From positions 1 to 63,038 of the forward strand of contig JBAYFY010000005.1 of assembly GCA_041666945.1 (NCBI GenBank): a stretch of 63,038 bases of DNA. The letters are read 5' to 3'. Source of the DNA: Candidatus Buchananbacteria bacterium (GTDB lineage: Bacteria > Patescibacteriota > Patescibacteriia > 2-01-FULL-39-33). The position numbers were made by a program, and so were the translations under genes. Of the stretch, positions 54,889 to 59,751 are shown one piece after another. The notes under the pieces were generated by a model that had not been told where the DNA came from, ran no database searches, and saw nothing but the letters and a program-made list of their open reading frames with translations. Position 1 is the first letter of the stretch; each line of letters begins with the position of its first letter.

Positions 54889-54946
54889 GATTTTATCTTG
54901 ATTTTTAAGATTTTAATGATCAACCCGTTATACTTGACAGGAAAAC

Positions 54947-54975
54947 TTGACAAGAAGCGGCTGGCTTGGTAAGTT
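54947..54975 (+). promoter_or_regulatory. promoter for the Ubl-conjugation operon
   Basis: TTGACA (54947-54952), N17, TAAGTT (54970-54975). A second TTGACA..GTAAGTTAA arrangement lies at 55025-55057, and extra ACTTGAC repeats lie around it. Confidence 0.45.
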
Positions 54976-55095
54976 AATAAGTCAAGTTTTCCGATTTTTA
55001 AAGTCGTGGGCTTGGTACTGAACTTTGACAAAAGAATAAAAAAGCATTGTAAGTTAAAAGTAGGATGATCATAAAAAACATAAGAGGAGGAAAAA

Positions 55096-56577
55096 ATGTC
55101 AGAGACACCAGCAAGCAGTTGTTCCACAGGCGATACCAGACGGGGCAATAGAAGAAATGCCCATAAGGTCATAGTAGAAGATTGGAATGGATCTGCTAAT
55201 CCAGATAAGTTCAAAACAATCGCCAGAAATGTTTTATTGCCGGTTGTTAATAAAGATATTGTTATCAGCGTTCCCCACTGCCGGATAAAACCGCTGTCTT
55301 CTGATGGCAAGTTCCATATTGAAATTTGGTCATCGCCGGAAAAGCTTCTTCCCCTTGTTCCGCCGCCGAAAGAGATGTGGGGCCAAGAAGTGTCTTGTTA
55401 CGATTCCTTATATAGAGCTACCGGTTCAGGAGAAGCCATTATTGATGAAACCACCGGCTGGGCGGTAGCAGAGTTATTTCCTGACAATCTCTATATTCAT
55501 TTTGATATTTGTCATAATGGCGACCCTGAAGAATTGAAGATTTTTAAGCTGCTTTTGAAAAGAGTAGCGGAATTTTTGCAACTTTCTCCGGCTGATAAAG
55601 CCAAGTTGAAAAAACAAGATGAGGAAAAAATTTTAACTGTTAACAAAGAGAGATATGCGAAATTGCTTTTAACTTTTTCCCAAGATAAAAATTCAAGGGA
55701 CGATAGTAGAGAGCAAGTTGAAGAAATGGAGCGGCAAATCAAACAACACAGAGTCGCCTTGACTCGACTTTTATTTAGCCGGGAAGTAATCAATAGGAAA
55801 AGGGCGGATACTTCCTCCCGTTTCAGGAGTCGGGAAAAACTTTTAATTGAATTTGATCAATTGAGATCCATGCCTAAAATAAAAGACGTGACTGTTTATG
55901 AAGATGATGTTATCAGCGTGACCACTGACATTCTGTATTGTCGCAATAAAGTTACGGGACTGCTGTATGAAATCGGAGCTTTTCGCCTGGATATTAGGCC
56001 AGAATTGCCGATTGATGATGAGGATTTTCAAGATAACATCGCCTTCACCAATCTCACCAGAGTGATTAAAACTGGACTTTCTCAAACATCGCAACACCCC
56101 CACATTTTTAATACCAAAGACAATTTTTGTTTGGGTAATGCCGAAGAAATAATTCCGGAGTTACTGTCCGGATTGGAGATTAAAGCCCTAATCAGCGTGA
56201 TGATTCAGTTTATTGAATCAGTCAATCTTGACGATTCTGCCGGAAAAGAACTTTTTCTTTGGCCTTTGGCGCCGCTTAAAATGCAATCTCCCGCAGTCCA
56301 AGACGAATTAAAAAGATTGAGACAAGCTGGTTTGTGGGGGCGTAACCCTTTTAGTAAAGTTGATGACAGCCATTGTTCCAGTAACTTTATAAAAATAGCG
56401 AAAAGCAGCCCTAAGAATTCCGTTGTTGTTTGGCAGTTAGGTGGAGATCATTGGTGTTTAAACGGCCGAAGAGACGATCAAGTTTATACGGATACCTTGG
56501 CAAGATGGCTGAAAGTAACCGATGATTGGGTTTATGCCATTATGAGAGATTATTTTTTTGTGATATCGAATAATTAG
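55096..56577 (+). CDS. E2 (UBC)-like protein with large N-terminal extension, coiled-coil region and C-terminal tail
   Basis: 493 aa with strong SD GAGGAGG. ..IAFTNLTRV..QHPHIFNTKDNFCLGN.. contains HPH 334-336 and Cys345 (nt 56128-56130). It is followed by the helix EEIIPELLSGLEIKALISVMIQFIES, the E2 HPN-Cys-helix layout. Confidence 0.6.
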   Translation: MSETPASSCSTGDTRRGNRRNAHKVIVEDWNGSANPDKFKTIARNVLLPVVNKDIVISVPHCRIKPLSSDGKFHIEIWSSPEKLLPLVPPPKEMWGQEVSCYDSLYRATGSGEAIIDETTGWAVAELFPDNLYIHFDICHNGDPEELKIFKLLLKRVAEFLQLSPADKAKLKKQDEEKILTVNKERYAKLLLTFSQDKNSRDDSREQVEEMERQIKQHRVALTRLLFSREVINRKRADTSSRFRSREKLLIEFDQLRSMPKIKDVTVYEDDVISVTTDILYCRNKVTGLLYEIGAFRLDIRPELPIDDEDFQDNIAFTNLTRVIKTGLSQTSQHPHIFNTKDNFCLGNAEEIIPELLSGLEIKALISVMIQFIESVNLDDSAGKELFLWPLAPLKMQSPAVQDELKRLRQAGLWGRNPFSKVDDSHCSSNFIKIAKSSPKNSVVVWQLGGDHWCLNGRRDDQVYTDTLARWLKVTDDWVYAIMRDYFFVISNN

Positions 56578-56644
56578 TGATACCGAATCAGATGAGTGTG
56601 GCAGAAAGCGGCAAAACAAAACAAAATCAACCGGGAGAGAATAA

Positions 56645-57358
56645 ATGCTGAAAGCGAGAAAACCAGGCGCAAGAACGGGCGTTGCCCAGCCGACCAGACC
56701 CAAGGCGGCTTATTTTCGGCCGCACGCCTTTGAAAACAGAGTAACCGTAATCGGCGGTGGTGAACCGCTAATTATGGTTACGCCGGAAGTCCAAGAAGAA
56801 ATGTATCATATTACCGATCAGGCCAGAGCGGAGGCGGGCTGGTTGGGGACTGTTTCCGAACTTGCCCTCCGTACCTATCTGATTGACAGGATCTTCATTT
56901 TTAAGCAGAGAGTTGATGGGGTTACCAACACTTTGACCAAAGAAGGTTTGTCGGCGACGGGTATAGAGATACTTAAAGAACCAGGCGGCATGGAAACCTG
57001 GAACAGAATAAAATTCTGGGGTCACAACCATGGCACTCTGTCAACCACTCCGTCAATTCAGGATAATGAACAATTGTTTACGTTTAGAAAATCCGGCCAC
57101 TCCTATTTTATTCGCGGGATCATCAACCGAGAGGGCAGAATGGAATTTTCTATCATTTATTATGATCAGGGAATTTTAATTGAAGACGTTCCTTGGCAGG
57201 TTTTTAATCCCATCGGCACCAGCCGCGCCCCAGCCATTGCCAAAGAATTGGCAGAAAAAGTTACCTGGATTAAAGGCAGGCGCGCCTTTGGGAATTCAGT
57301 CGATATGGCTGCTTATTTTGCTGCAGCGGCAATGGCGCCAGGCGAACATTATGAGTAG
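56645..57358 (+). CDS. JAMM/MPN+ (JAB) metalloisopeptidase
   Basis: 237 aa with E63 and a complete H127-N-H129-x7-S137-x2-D140 motif (WGHNHGTLSTTPSIQD, nt 57023-57064). Confidence 0.8.
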   Translation: MLKARKPGARTGVAQPTRPKAAYFRPHAFENRVTVIGGGEPLIMVTPEVQEEMYHITDQARAEAGWLGTVSELALRTYLIDRIFIFKQRVDGVTNTLTKEGLSATGIEILKEPGGMETWNRIKFWGHNHGTLSTTPSIQDNEQLFTFRKSGHSYFIRGIINREGRMEFSIIYYDQGILIEDVPWQVFNPIGTSRAPAIAKELAEKVTWIKGRRAFGNSVDMAAYFAAAAMAPGEHYE

Positions 57359-58046
57359 CATTAACCCCACGCGCCATTTGCAGGTATTTTCTCCTCAAGA
57401 ATTTAACAAAGCCGGCTATAAGATTGACGTGATTGGTTGCGGAGCGACCGGTTCGCGCCTCGTGCTGTCTTTGGCCAAGTTAGGCATTACTAATATCCGC
57501 GTTTGGGATTTTGATAAGGTCCAAGCCCATAACATTCCTAATCAGGCCTTTAACTTGGCGACGGATATCAACCGGCTTAAAGTGGAGGCGATACGGGATG
57601 CGGTTTCGGCCGCGACTGGCACCACCATAGAGATATGCGATACCAAGGTGGACGGCAGCCAAGAATTAGGCGATATTGTCTTTCTCTTGACAGATACCAT
57701 GGCCTCGCGTAGAATGATTTGGGAAGGCGCTATTAAATTAAAGGCAGCCGTTCGGCTGATGGTGGAAACGCGTTTGGGCGTTGAATCGGGCAAGATTTAT
57801 ACCATTCATCCCGGGCGTCTTAGCCATATTAATGCCTGGGAAAGCACTTTGTGCGAAGATCGCGTAGCGACGCCCAGCGCTTGCGGAGCCGTTGTGTCAG
57901 TCGGAGCGACAGCGGAAATTATTTCCGGTTTTGCCCAATGGCAATTAATCAGATGGTTTCAGATTCAACAAGGAAAGGAGACGGATTTGGCCAACGAAAT
58001 AATTTTTTCTCTTCGCCCCCCCATGATATTGACGAGAAATTTTTAG
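57351..58046 (+). CDS. minimal E1-like ThiF/MoeB-family adenylyltransferase (231 aa)
   Basis: The ATG at 57351 overlaps the JAB stop (ATGAGTAG). It carries IDVIGCGATGS (GxGxxG), DFDKVQAHNIPNQ and LLTDTMASRR. The track ORF start at 57180 is an in-frame upstream artefact. Confidence 0.8.
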   Translation: MSSINPTRHLQVFSPQEFNKAGYKIDVIGCGATGSRLVLSLAKLGITNIRVWDFDKVQAHNIPNQAFNLATDINRLKVEAIRDAVSAATGTTIEICDTKVDGSQELGDIVFLLTDTMASRRMIWEGAIKLKAAVRLMVETRLGVESGKIYTIHPGRLSHINAWESTLCEDRVATPSACGAVVSVGATAEIISGFAQWQLIRWFQIQQGKETDLANEIIFSLRPPMILTRNF

Positions 58047-58131
58047 CAGTTTTTAATAATTGCAAACAGCAGAGCCGTGTGTTGCGGTTTTGCCGATAGT
58101 AATGCGGTACAACCAATAAGGAGGGTTAGTC

Positions 58132-58374
58132 ATGCCCGAAAAGAAAGTGTCCCAAGATAAAGGATTTATTGGTGTCAAGGTTGCCAAATTGCCAGGCCTG
58201 GTTAAGGAAATCGGCCTGAATGGCAGACGGACAGTCGCCGACGCGTTGGAAGGCGCCGATCTGGATGCGGAAGAAGGTTACGAGCTCCGCGTCAACAACG
58301 AAGTCGTGGGAACCGATCATGTTTTGTCCGACGGGGACATCGTGCTTTTGGTGGAAGAGATCACCGGCAATTAA
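58132..58374 (+). CDS. ubiquitin-like beta-grasp protein (ThiS/MoaD-like), C-terminus ..EEITGN
   Basis: 80 aa with SD AAGGAGGG. ..LRVNNEVVGTDHVLSDGDIVLLVEEITGN parallels the ThiS ..vNge.v....L.dGD.v.i...vgGG. Confidence 0.6.
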   Translation: MPEKKVSQDKGFIGVKVAKLPGLVKEIGLNGRRTVADALEGADLDAEEGYELRVNNEVVGTDHVLSDGDIVLLVEEITGN

Positions 58375-58415
58375 AGCCGGGCAGGAAAGTATGTTTTAGT
58401 TCATTAGCTTGTTAT

Positions 58416-58445
58416 AGCCGGATCGCGTATCCGGCTTTTTCTTTT
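58416..58445 (+). terminator. intrinsic terminator of the Ubl operon
   Basis: agccgga/tccggct stem followed by a T-run. Confidence 0.7.
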
Positions 58446-58537: not shown

Positions 58538-58611
58538 GGGCAATTAGCTCAGTTGGTTAGAGCGTCTCGTTGACGTCGAGAAGGTCAGTGGTTCGAATCC
58601 ACTATTGCCCA
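58538..58611 (+). tRNA. tRNA-Val (GAC)
   Basis: Acceptor gggcaat/attgccc, anticodon loop TTGACGT, T-arm agtgg-ttcgaat-ccact. Confidence 0.9.
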
Positions 58612-58619
58612 CATAAAAC

Positions 58620-59662: not shown

Positions 59663-59678
59663 GAAAAATCTCTCTTAG

Positions 59679-59751
59679 TAGGCCTGGATGGATTTGAACC
59701 ATCGACATCTACCTTATAAGGGTAGCGCTCTAACCACTGAGCTACAGGCCC
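59679..59751 (-). tRNA. tRNA-Ile (UAU)
   Basis: Revcomp folds as GGGCCTG TA GCTC AGTGGTTA GAGC G CTACC CTTATAA GGTAG ATGTC GATGG TTCAAAT CCATC CAGGCCT A. Confidence 0.85.

Follow-up and report, generated by a model that had tools for sequence, protein, structure and literature searches.

Does a four-gene operon in the chromosome of a candidate phyla radiation (CPR) bacterium encode a complete ubiquitin-like conjugation pathway, or are similar parts put to another use? The operon, whose genes and products are here called g1 to g4, lies on contig JBAYFY010000005.1 of a Candidatus Buchananbacteria bacterium, which was analyzed over its 63,038 nucleotides (the window). An earlier note, made from these letters alone, had read the products as an E2-like protein, a JAMM protease, a minimal ThiF/MoeB-type adenylating enzyme (E1), and a ThiS/MoaD-like beta-grasp protein, and the set as a conjugation cassette. 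All four assignments held, and in our view the operon likely specifies a ubiquitin-like protein-conjugation pathway that is complete without an E3 and represents a distinct family. The evidence that carries this reading consists of the folds or families of the four proteins, the conservation of their catalytic residues, their strict co-occurrence, and the absence of sulfur-pathway partners.

Experimentally characterized prokaryotic ubiquitination-like pathways are few, the Caldiarchaeum-type archaeal system being among them. In bacteria, Type II CBASS (antiphage signaling based on cyclic oligonucleotides), Bil, and Bub have been described as operons with shown or proposed antiphage roles.

The four proteins of the operon

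The g3 protein matches Pfam ThiF with an E-value of 1e-16 (cutoff 28.1 bits), and a profile of 16 members of its family matches Escherichia coli ThiF at 7e-14 over nearly the full length (residues 16-199), followed by Uba1, MccB, PaaA, Uba5, NAE1, MoeB, Cap2, and BubCD. Among the best 25 of 31 PADLOC matches listed for g3, only Cap2-type E1-E2 models are found. The GCGATG loop (GxGATG in the family), Asp115 in the sequence DTM, and Lys77 are invariant, as is Cys178, which the profile alignment places on Cys184 of E. coli ThiF, the crossover-loop cysteine (numbering counted from the alignment). Where the canonical NLxRQ motif has its arginine, g3 has an invariant Asn64, with HNIPNQ aligned to NLQRQ of ThiF; this residue is asparagine across the whole E1 family, within the motif HN[IVL][PA]NQ, which is specific enough to retrieve 282 viral relatives. 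On these grounds, g3 is predicted to be a minimal, single-domain ThiF/MoeB-type E1.

In g2, the complete JAMM motif noted earlier (Glu63, His127, His129, Ser137, and Asp140; E..HxHx7Sx2D) is invariant in 19 homologues sharing 25-65% identity. When the AlphaFold2 (AF2) model of g2, with a predicted local distance difference test score (pLDDT) of 82.5 and a predicted template modeling (TM) score of 0.73, was compared with the PDB using Foldseek, 167 matches were obtained at E<=1e-3, led by BRCC36 (8.5e-9) and including Rpn11, CSN5, PfJAMM1 (TM 0.79-0.80), and the Caldiarchaeum Rpn11 homologue among the other leading ones. The g2 sequence itself has no match in Pfam, PADLOC, NCBIfam, PHROGs, or the PDB, and its family matches Pfam Prok-JAB weakly, two of eight members doing so at an E-value of 0.046. 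Curated JAB models thus do not recognize g2, its family having diverged beyond the reach of the sequence models now available. By the fold of the model and the motif, g2 is a predicted deubiquitinase-type JAMM/MPN+ metalloprotease.

The AF2 model of g1 (pLDDT 78.6) has four parts: an N-terminal alpha/beta domain, a long coiled coil, a UBC-like domain, and a C-terminal extension (Table 1). Searches of Pfam, PADLOC, NCBIfam, PHROGs, and PDB sequences gave nothing usable; a match to PADLOC LmuB (E 3.3e-4, residues 114-256) and matches to KaiC/YcaO are located in the coiled coil and were discounted as effects of composition. Foldseek, however, returned UBC E2s as all of the 12 best PDB matches (UBE2L3, UBE2L6, and others; probability up to 0.97, TM to target 0.45-0.48, E 0.016-0.17), with Cap2 at rank 23. 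Since the full 493-residue model served as query, these scores are borderline. Using hhalign, the C-terminal domain was aligned to six human E2s, whose sequences had been entered by hand, a caveat on this comparison, with E-values of 1.5e-4 for 15 sequences and 8e-5 for 30 diverse ones; over 109-114 columns, YEIGAF falls on YQGGVF, SVNLDD on DPNPDD, Pro-His336 on the Pro-Asn of the HPN motif, and Cys345 on Cys85, the catalytic cysteine of UBE2D2. An hmmsearch of C-terminal domain profiles against 177,635 PDB sequences returned only UBE2A, at a nonsignificant E-value of about 1, in the same register and with Cys345 on its catalytic cysteine. Moreover, the order of elements in the modeled domain (a helix, four strands, helices) is congruent with UBC. 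The three independent methods thus agree in fold and register, none of them being strong individually, and the best reading of residues ~243-396 is a UBC-like E2 domain with an xPH...C active site, in line with the E2 layout proposed before.

Conservation points the same way. Across 16 homologues found with a word index, Asn319, Arg322, Pro335, His336, Cys345, Gly347, Trp389, and Pro390 are invariant; in 30 much more diverse members, His336 and Cys345 remain invariant and the proline nearly so. The earlier note had proposed His-Pro-His at 334-336 together with Cys345. Of these residues, Pro335, His336, and Cys345 are conserved and His334 is not, being mostly alanine in the homologues. The motif is therefore [A/H/G]-P-H, in which a histidine takes the place of the asparagine of canonical HPN. 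Among predicted viral structures in BFVD, uncharacterized phage proteins resemble g1 (best 2.6e-6).

For the N-terminal domain of g1 (residues 22-165), no relative could be detected in either Pfam or the PDB; Foldseek gave weak matches to class-I glutamine amidotransferases (HisH, probability ~0.3) and a profile search of the PDB a single match to amidase_3 (E 1.3). That it might be a degenerate E2 was rejected, the hhalign probability against E2s or against the C-terminal domain being ~1%. The motifs VPHG..DGKFHI.IWSSP and NLYIHHD.xH are conserved in this domain, which occurs in one to three copies among homologues (repeated in P0003, P0007, and P0010). It may serve in target recognition or as a second catalytic module. 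The C-terminal extension of g1 is shared only with P0002 and the protein of locus L013; weak matches to FHA domains (FHA_2 of Pfam at E 0.0099, that of PNKP in the PDB at E 0.8) were not accepted as an assignment, given the low confidence of the model there.

Lastly, g4 matches Pfam ThiS at 4.4e-4, just under the gathering score, and 14 of 23 members of its family match it as well (best 3.9e-9). The family profile finds Pyrococcus SAMP2 (PfSAMP2) at 3.8e-6 and ThiS at 8.9e-4, and then MoaD, Haloferax SAMP2, and TtuB. These matches argue for a ThiS/SAMP2-like beta-grasp ubiquitin-like protein (Ubl).

Distribution of the cassette

In all six of the homologous contexts collected first, a g1 homologue is followed by a g2 homologue, a ThiF protein, and a small protein, amid flanks that are otherwise unrelated (DNA polymerase I, polymerase III delta, RuvC/YebC, SUF/NifU, RsmB, and others); the flanks of the window recur in one of them only, L001, from a metagenome-assembled genome (MAG) labeled Patescibacteria. 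Hidden Markov models built from these cassettes recovered the full gene set in further metagenome loci, and the set is also present in Ca. Obscuribacter and on a contig of a cluster that holds a Bdellovibrionales-labeled fragment. Altogether, about 20 cellular contigs from CPR, Melainabacteria, and others carry the cassette. When the genomes of 185,579 species representatives were scanned with one peptide pattern, four loci were found, in MAGs labeled Patescibacteria, Saccharibacteria, "bacterium", and "Flavobacteriaceae"; the Saccharibacteria locus has the permuted order Ubl-JAMM-E1-E2. The Flavobacteriaceae-labeled locus (L012, WGBX01000058.1) and the one labeled "bacterium" (L013) share the same cassette sequence and come from the same sample, S144, and the former label is probably a binning error.

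The E2-like domain is far more widespread. Searching 1.84 billion cluster representatives (50% identity) with its profile in HMMER yielded 3,825 proteins at E<=1e-3, 2,144 at <=1e-10, and 507 at <=1e-30, some of them with two copies of the domain. All available names in this family read "hypothetical protein", ten long members contain no Pfam domain, and the organism labels include Patescibacteria, Paceibacterota, Obscuribacter, a Planktothrix-labeled MAG, and Bdellovibrionales. Four loci (L007, L022, L024, and L028) carry E2 paralogs that lack the cysteine, in the manner of ubiquitin E2 variants (UEVs), with APYVF..AVSE in L022 and L028 and YPMPGN in L007; a tandem E1 resembling the pair of inactive and active adenylation domains (IAD-AAD) occurs in L007 only.

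Larger cassettes were seen in L022 (7283-13304; Ca. Obscuribacter), L028 (6365-12135), and L027 (6779-11795). They encode di-Ubl precursors in which each repeat ends in GN, an active E2-like protein with duplicated N-terminal domains next to a second E2-like paralog lacking both His and Cys, and JAMM proteins of 450-496 residues (the one of L028 was called at 450) whose long tails are of low complexity.

The earlier note had placed the operon in what appeared to be a reduced CPR-type genome. The system is not specific to CPR bacteria: predicted phage contigs carry it widely. A scan of IMG/VR with the E2 profile gave four loci on contigs of 180-395 kb, and a scan with two peptide patterns specific to the E1 family gave 313 stretches, 282 of which were confirmed to carry the E1. 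The best 80 of these (L029-L108; contigs of 4.6-395 kb) were kept, and 62 remained after removal of near-duplicates. All four genes lie within +/-5 kb in 52 of the 62, in several orders (g1-g2-g3-g4, g4-g1-g2-g3, and g4-g3-g2-g1); examples are L083 (4333-7593), L097 (4579-7566), and L056 (1788-5657). The flanks include phage DNA polymerase (phrog_17), DnaB-type helicase, primase, SbcCD, and phage nucleotidyltransferase genes. The cassette of L024 (303-4808), on an IMG/VR contig of 207 kb, has seven arrayed tRNA genes directly upstream, consistent with a huge phage. The carrier contigs are assigned to phages because of the IMG/VR call and their replication-module neighbors, and on this basis the family resides mainly on predicted phage genomes and sporadically in chromosomes. 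The window itself belongs to a cellular chromosome, with genes for DnaA, GyrA, PBP1, and IMPDH.

Among cultured phages, more distant versions are found. A tblastn search of 50,697 GenBank phage records with g1 and g2 gave no real match; g3 matched genes named "thiamine biosynthesis protein ThiF" with 27-30% identity, both in jumbo phages of Xanthomonas and Erwinia and in FpV4-like phages of Flavobacterium. In Xanthomonas phage PhiXhv-12 (L110, PV764601.1, 1736-5612), the E1 neighbors a 140-residue Ubl-like protein ending in ..ASGG and an 892-residue protein with an IHPH...SLCLGS segment that hhalign matches to the E2-like profile at an E-value of 1.2e-4. Flavobacterium phage FpV4 (L109, 1628-5639) encodes a Ubl-like gp53 (..KSGG), gp51 with a JAMM motif, and the E1; gp51 is linked to JAMM proteins at the level of the motif only, and no E2-like protein is detectable in this phage, gp52 included. 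In these genomes the parts are annotated only as "thiamine biosynthesis protein" and hypothetical proteins.

The Gly-Asn end, the proposed pathway, and its rivals

The Ubls of the window's clade all end in [K/R/T/A]-G-N; the glycine (Gly79 in g4) is invariant and the asparagine (Asn80) conserved in most cassettes. In some relatives further residues follow GN: a cysteine (L003, L013, and L027), SSSY (L028), 17 residues (L023), or a whole second domain (L007). In the viral loci, none follows in 13, one in 15, two in one, and at least five in 12, and the residue directly after GN varies among V, Q, K, S, N, M, A, E, L, and G. Poly-Ubl genes, with two or three tandem copies, show G-N at every internal junction, where N, F, V, Q, or other residues come next; they are present in L022, L027, L028, and L033. 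Sister clades end in GG+C or GG+I (L018 and L019) or in GA, GA+C, or GA+VA, the GG forms taking the place of the GN or GN+C of the window's clade. The Asn of g4 falls, in profile alignments, on the terminal glycine of ThiS (Gly66) and MoaD (Gly81), and the glycine preceding it on the penultimate glycine of SAMP2.

In Type II Bil, a conserved glycine is followed by nonconserved residues, which the JAMM protein BilC removes (PMC10557695). Applied to the present family, the logic of a conserved motif followed by variable residues (PMC10557695) implies that the mature g4 end includes the asparagine; it is most likely Gly-Asn rather than Gly, and the Ubl of the window would therefore need no trimming. 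We accordingly lean toward activation of the C-terminal Asn over trimming to Gly, and the suggestion in the earlier note that the JAMM protein trims this residue is probably wrong. The E1 offers a possible counterpart: GN ends are paired with threonine at the fifth residue of the glycine loop (GxG[A/S]TG) in 48 of 49 cassettes, and GA and GG ends with I, L, or V at this position in seven of nine (Thr in two). Fisher's test gives 9e-7 for this covariation, a value uncorrected for shared ancestry and probably reflecting few independent events. A substrate-assisted scheme, in which the E2 histidine would covary with the terminal Asn of the Ubl, was rejected, since xPH..C is identical in the GN, GG, and GA clades.

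From these elements, we infer each chemical step of the following pathway, including the thioester relay and the target. The beta-grasp Ubl (g4) would be bound by a dimeric g3, which would adenylate its C-terminal carboxylate with ATP and then probably hold it as a thioester on the crossover-loop Cys178. The Ubl would be handed to Cys345 in the UBC-like domain of g1, whose N-terminal domain and coiled coil presumably pick targets or oligomerize, and be delivered to a target amine. The JAMM protein g2 would cleave precursors in which the conserved end is followed by extra residues or by tandem Ubl copies, and probably reverses conjugates as well. Parallels with ubiquitin systems extend to the poly-Ubl precursors, the UEV-like paralogs, and the one tandem E1. 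Phage bias and a patchy distribution suggest a role in conflict; with carriage mainly by phages and sporadically by chromosomes, the likeliest setting would be phage-host conflict or phage takeover, which is a guess on our part.

A bolder version of this pathway is possible, though we hold it for doubtful. It would be the first Ubl system with an activated C-terminal Asn, matched by the E1 loop threonine. It would be carried chiefly by phages, from ~25 kb in size to huge phages of 395 kb, which would use it from the replication or early module for tagging proteins of the host or the phage; the CPR copy would have been captured or exchanged. If so, the Asn terminus could permit a succinimide intermediate or iso-Asn linkages, and a Gly-Asn remnant on lysines would be a diagnostic mark.

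Several observations weigh against a conjugation pathway or parts of it. Each E2 score is borderline (Foldseek E 0.016, hhalign probability 51-61%, hmmsearch E ~1), the pLDDT of the active-site loop of g1 is only 61-67, and the oxyanion asparagine of the HPN motif is replaced by histidine. The g3 protein lacks the canonical NLxRQ arginine, zinc CxxC motifs, and the ubiquitin-fold domain that binds E2s, so that the transfer from E1 to E2 is left with no modeled interface. The covariation of GN with threonine is confounded by clade structure, the JAMM protein may trim Asn80 after the precedent of Type II Bil (PMC10557695), and the window holds no defense-island neighbors.

The operon is not Bil, Bub, or CBASS, because the defining features of each fail. 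In composition it resembles Type I Bil (BilABCD; operon type "6d" of Iyer et al. 2006), which likewise has separate genes for a Ubl, an E2-like protein, a JAMM protein, and an E1 and no E3, with Ubls that may contain several beta-grasp domains and a JAMM protein expected to process the Ubl and reverse conjugates. The operon could then be a divergent Type I/II BilABCD defense tagging phage structural proteins, a reading that we regard as unlikely. It would account for the same four-part list (PMC11601596; PMC1779556, row 6d) and for the patchy occurrence in cellular genomes noted above. However, Bil E1s are defined by an architecture of IAD, AAD, and catalytic cysteine domain (CYS) (PMC11601596), which the 231-residue g3, a single adenylation domain with a crossover-loop cysteine, does not have. 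Bil E2s lack the upstream histidine and use a downstream one instead (PMC1779556), whereas g1 keeps an upstream xPH nine residues before its cysteine and adds an N-terminal domain and a coiled coil. The Bil Ubl varies right after its glycine and the Ubls of the present family one residue later. No Bil protein appeared in the PDB sequence searches or among the best 50 fold matches listed, and g1, g2, and g4 have no PADLOC match at E<=1 (PADLOC v2 was not checked for Bil-specific models). Finally, most copies found of the present family sit in replication modules of predicted phage contigs, the opposite side of the conflict.

Bub (6E/DUF6527) is also a bacterial set of Ubl, E1, and E2, with or without a JAMM protein, and BubCD distantly matches the E1 profile (4e-7). 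It is characterized by the DUF6527 serine protease, an E1 and E2 without catalytic cysteine, and fused genes (PMC11601596). Bub works through Ser/Tyr oxyesters and has Ubl-E2 and JAMM-E1 fusions, whereas here both cysteines are invariant and the genes separate; no DUF6527 protease is found in the cassettes, as judged from precomputed Pfam lists of the neighbors. Type II CBASS shares E1 and E2 chemistry with a JAMM antagonist (Cap2/Cap3), and PADLOC E1-E2 models recognize g3 over its Rossmann core (6e-10). Cap2, however, is an E2-E1 fusion that conjugates a cGAS/DncV-like nucleotidyltransferase (CD-NTase) rather than a beta-grasp Ubl. In our case E1 and E2 are separate, and the window's operon contains neither a CD-NTase/nucleotidyltransferase nor an effector gene.

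Two systems outside the bacteria resemble single parts. Archaeal sampylation (UbaA, SAMP1/2, and JAMM1) has a minimal MoeB/ThiF-type E1, its Pyrococcus SAMP2 is the best sequence match of g4 (3.8e-6), and PfJAMM1, found together with PfSAMP2 in PDB entry 5LDA, is among the best fold matches of g2 (TM 0.8). It works without an E2 and its SAMPs end in Gly-Gly, in contrast to the strictly co-occurring UBC-like protein and Gly-Asn end described here. With eukaryotic UBC E2s (UBE2L3, UBE2D2, and UBE2A), the g1 domain shares the order of the core fold and the register of the YxxGxF strand, the [H]P[N/H] loop, the cysteine 8-9 residues on, and the D-rich "NxxD" helix cap. Sequence identity amounts to 14-18% in the alignments of the fold search and to about 20% in those of hhalign. 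The differences lie in the catalytic-loop asparagine, which is an invariant histidine here, in the first histidine, which is not conserved, and in the surroundings of the domain, which in the g1 family is embedded in proteins of 400-1000 residues.

Could the cassette instead serve sulfur transfer? On this view, g3 and g4 would make a C-terminal thiocarboxylate in the way of ThiF/ThiS, MoeB/MoaD, TtuC/TtuB, or CysO; the part of g2 would be to trim or recycle the carrier like QbsD and Mec+, and g1 would be an unrelated accessory. The nearest sequence relatives of g3 and g4 are indeed ThiF, ThiS, MoaD, TtuB, and SAMP2, g3 is of the minimal bacterial type without eukaryote-like insertions, and the homologous cassette L003 lies downstream of SUF/NifU genes. 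We nevertheless consider the proposal quite improbable. Beyond its beta-grasp similarity, g4 lacks both the Gly-Gly end and the recurrent biosynthetic partners of ThiS/MoaD carriers; to our knowledge, all characterized thiocarboxylate carriers end in Gly-Gly. Neither cysteine desulfurase, rhodanese, ThiG, ThiH, MoaE, CysM, nor TtuA is a recurrent neighbor across the ~20 cellular and 62 viral cassettes, so that the sulfur-transfer neighborhood named in the earlier note as the alternative is not a consistent one, and in the window, as that note had stated, no thiamine, molybdopterin, or cysteine-biosynthesis genes flank the operon. Moreover, g1 strictly co-occurs and has an invariant cysteine in a UBC-like fold, and poly-Ubl genes and phage carriage are unsuited to cofactor biosynthesis.

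Least probable of all is chemistry of the MccB/PaaA kind, in which the E1 would adenylate the terminal Asn and the side-chain amide cyclize to a succinimide, as MccB does on MccA, to yield, instead of a lysine conjugate, a modified protein, a peptidyl-nucleotide, or a reactive succinimide. In its favor are the conserved Asn terminus, the tendency of an activated C-terminal Asn to form succinimides, and the g3 profile, which finds MccB (1.5e-12) and PaaA (5e-12) with scores close to that of ThiF. But these matches span the Rossmann core only (g3 residues 11-103; MccB residues ~107-201), the 231-residue g3 lacks the N-terminal peptide-clamp domain and falls outside MccB, there are no export or immunity genes, the sister clades ending in GG and GA use the same E2, JAMM, and E1 set, and the E2-like cysteine and deubiquitinase-type JAMM protein are left unexplained.

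The locus in the window and the significance of the family

The layout of the operon agrees with most of what had been noted about it. The four genes are co-directional, Shine-Dalgarno-like sites precede g1 (AAGAGGAGG), g2 (GGGAGAG), and g4 (AAGGAGGG), and g2 and g3 overlap by exactly eight nucleotides (ATGAGTAG), g3 starting within the last codons of g2. The best terminator-like hairpin of the region stands after g4. Position 54,947, given earlier as the start, marks a TTGACA hexamer within the 295-nt intergenic region upstream of g1 and not the start of a gene. This region also contains a tandem ACTTGACA[G/A]GAA repeat, and its TTGACA, TCAAGTTTT, and ACTTTGACAAAA blocks are kept in the syntenic L001. 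The repeats and the TTGACA..TAAGTT units may form a promoter plus operator, to judge from their sequence; the units are not among the best promoters of a consensus scan. An Rfam search found no riboswitch or other known RNA upstream of the operon, its only match being the tRNA.

Table 1. Features of the operon and its surroundings in the window
Feature	Position	Strand	Description
Upstream control region (putative)	54932-55055	+	Repeats and promoter-like units; function inferred only
Inverted repeat	54940-54951 / 54981-54992		Perfect, 12 nt (GGAAAACTTGAC / GTCAAGTTTTCC); arms 29 nt apart
Promoter-like units	54947-54975; 55025-55055		Two TTGACA..TAAGTT units
g1	55096-56577	+	493-aa open reading frame (ORF); multidomain E2-like protein
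g1 N-terminal domain	55159-55590	+	Residues ~22-165; alpha/beta domain in AF2 model
g1 coiled coil		+	Residues ~165-240; long, in AF2 model
g1 UBC-like (E2-like) domain	55822-56283	+	Residues ~243-396; helix, four-strand meander, helices in AF2 model; Pro335-His336 in the HPN place, putative catalytic Cys345
g1 C-terminal extension	56284-56574	+	Residues ~397-493; poorly predicted in AF2 model
g2	56645-57358	+	237-aa ORF; predicted JAMM/MPN+ zinc isopeptidase/peptidase
g2/g3 overlap	57351-57358	+	8 nt
g3	57351-58046	+	231 aa from internal ATG; predicted minimal single-domain ThiF/MoeB-type E1
g4	58132-58374	+	80-aa ORF; predicted ThiS/SAMP2-like beta-grasp Ubl; C-terminus EEITGN (Gly79-Asn80)
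Intrinsic-terminator-like hairpin	58416-58436, with T-run to 58445	+	8 pairs, 5 G-C; TTTTTCTTTT tail; closes operon
tRNA-Val(GAC)	58538-58612		Downstream of operon
tRNA-Ile (TAT anticodon)	59678-59751	-	Downstream; unrelated to operon

The tRNA-Val gene that the earlier note placed beside the operon is there, but the adjacency is incidental, being limited to the window and the syntenic L001, and the gene was for this reason rejected as an integration site. The tRNA-Ile gene also recurs in L001 (10391-10464). The description of the region as an accessory tract was stronger than the data allow: G+C is ordinary, with no compositional anomaly across the operon, and the same flanks are present in L001, whose g1 is only 52% identical to that of the window.

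No description of the cassette in CPR bacteria, Melainabacteria, or phages was found in the openly accessible full-text literature, and a comparative survey of 224 jumbo phages from 2021 makes no mention of it. The family is large, yet models in Pfam, PADLOC, NCBIfam, and PHROGs detect only its ThiF/E1 part, g3. It would add a fourth lineage to the ubiquitination-like pathways of bacteria. As most copies are on predicted phage genomes, ubiquitin-like tagging may here serve the side of the virus, much as eukaryotic viruses use ubiquitin, and the presence of distant relatives in cultured jumbo phages of Xanthomonas and Erwinia opens the system to experiment. The Gly-Asn end challenges the assumption that modifiers activated by an E1 need a C-terminal glycine. 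Finally, the classical-looking E2 loop, the poly-Ubl genes, and the UEV-like paralogs are relevant to the origin of the eukaryotic ubiquitin machinery.

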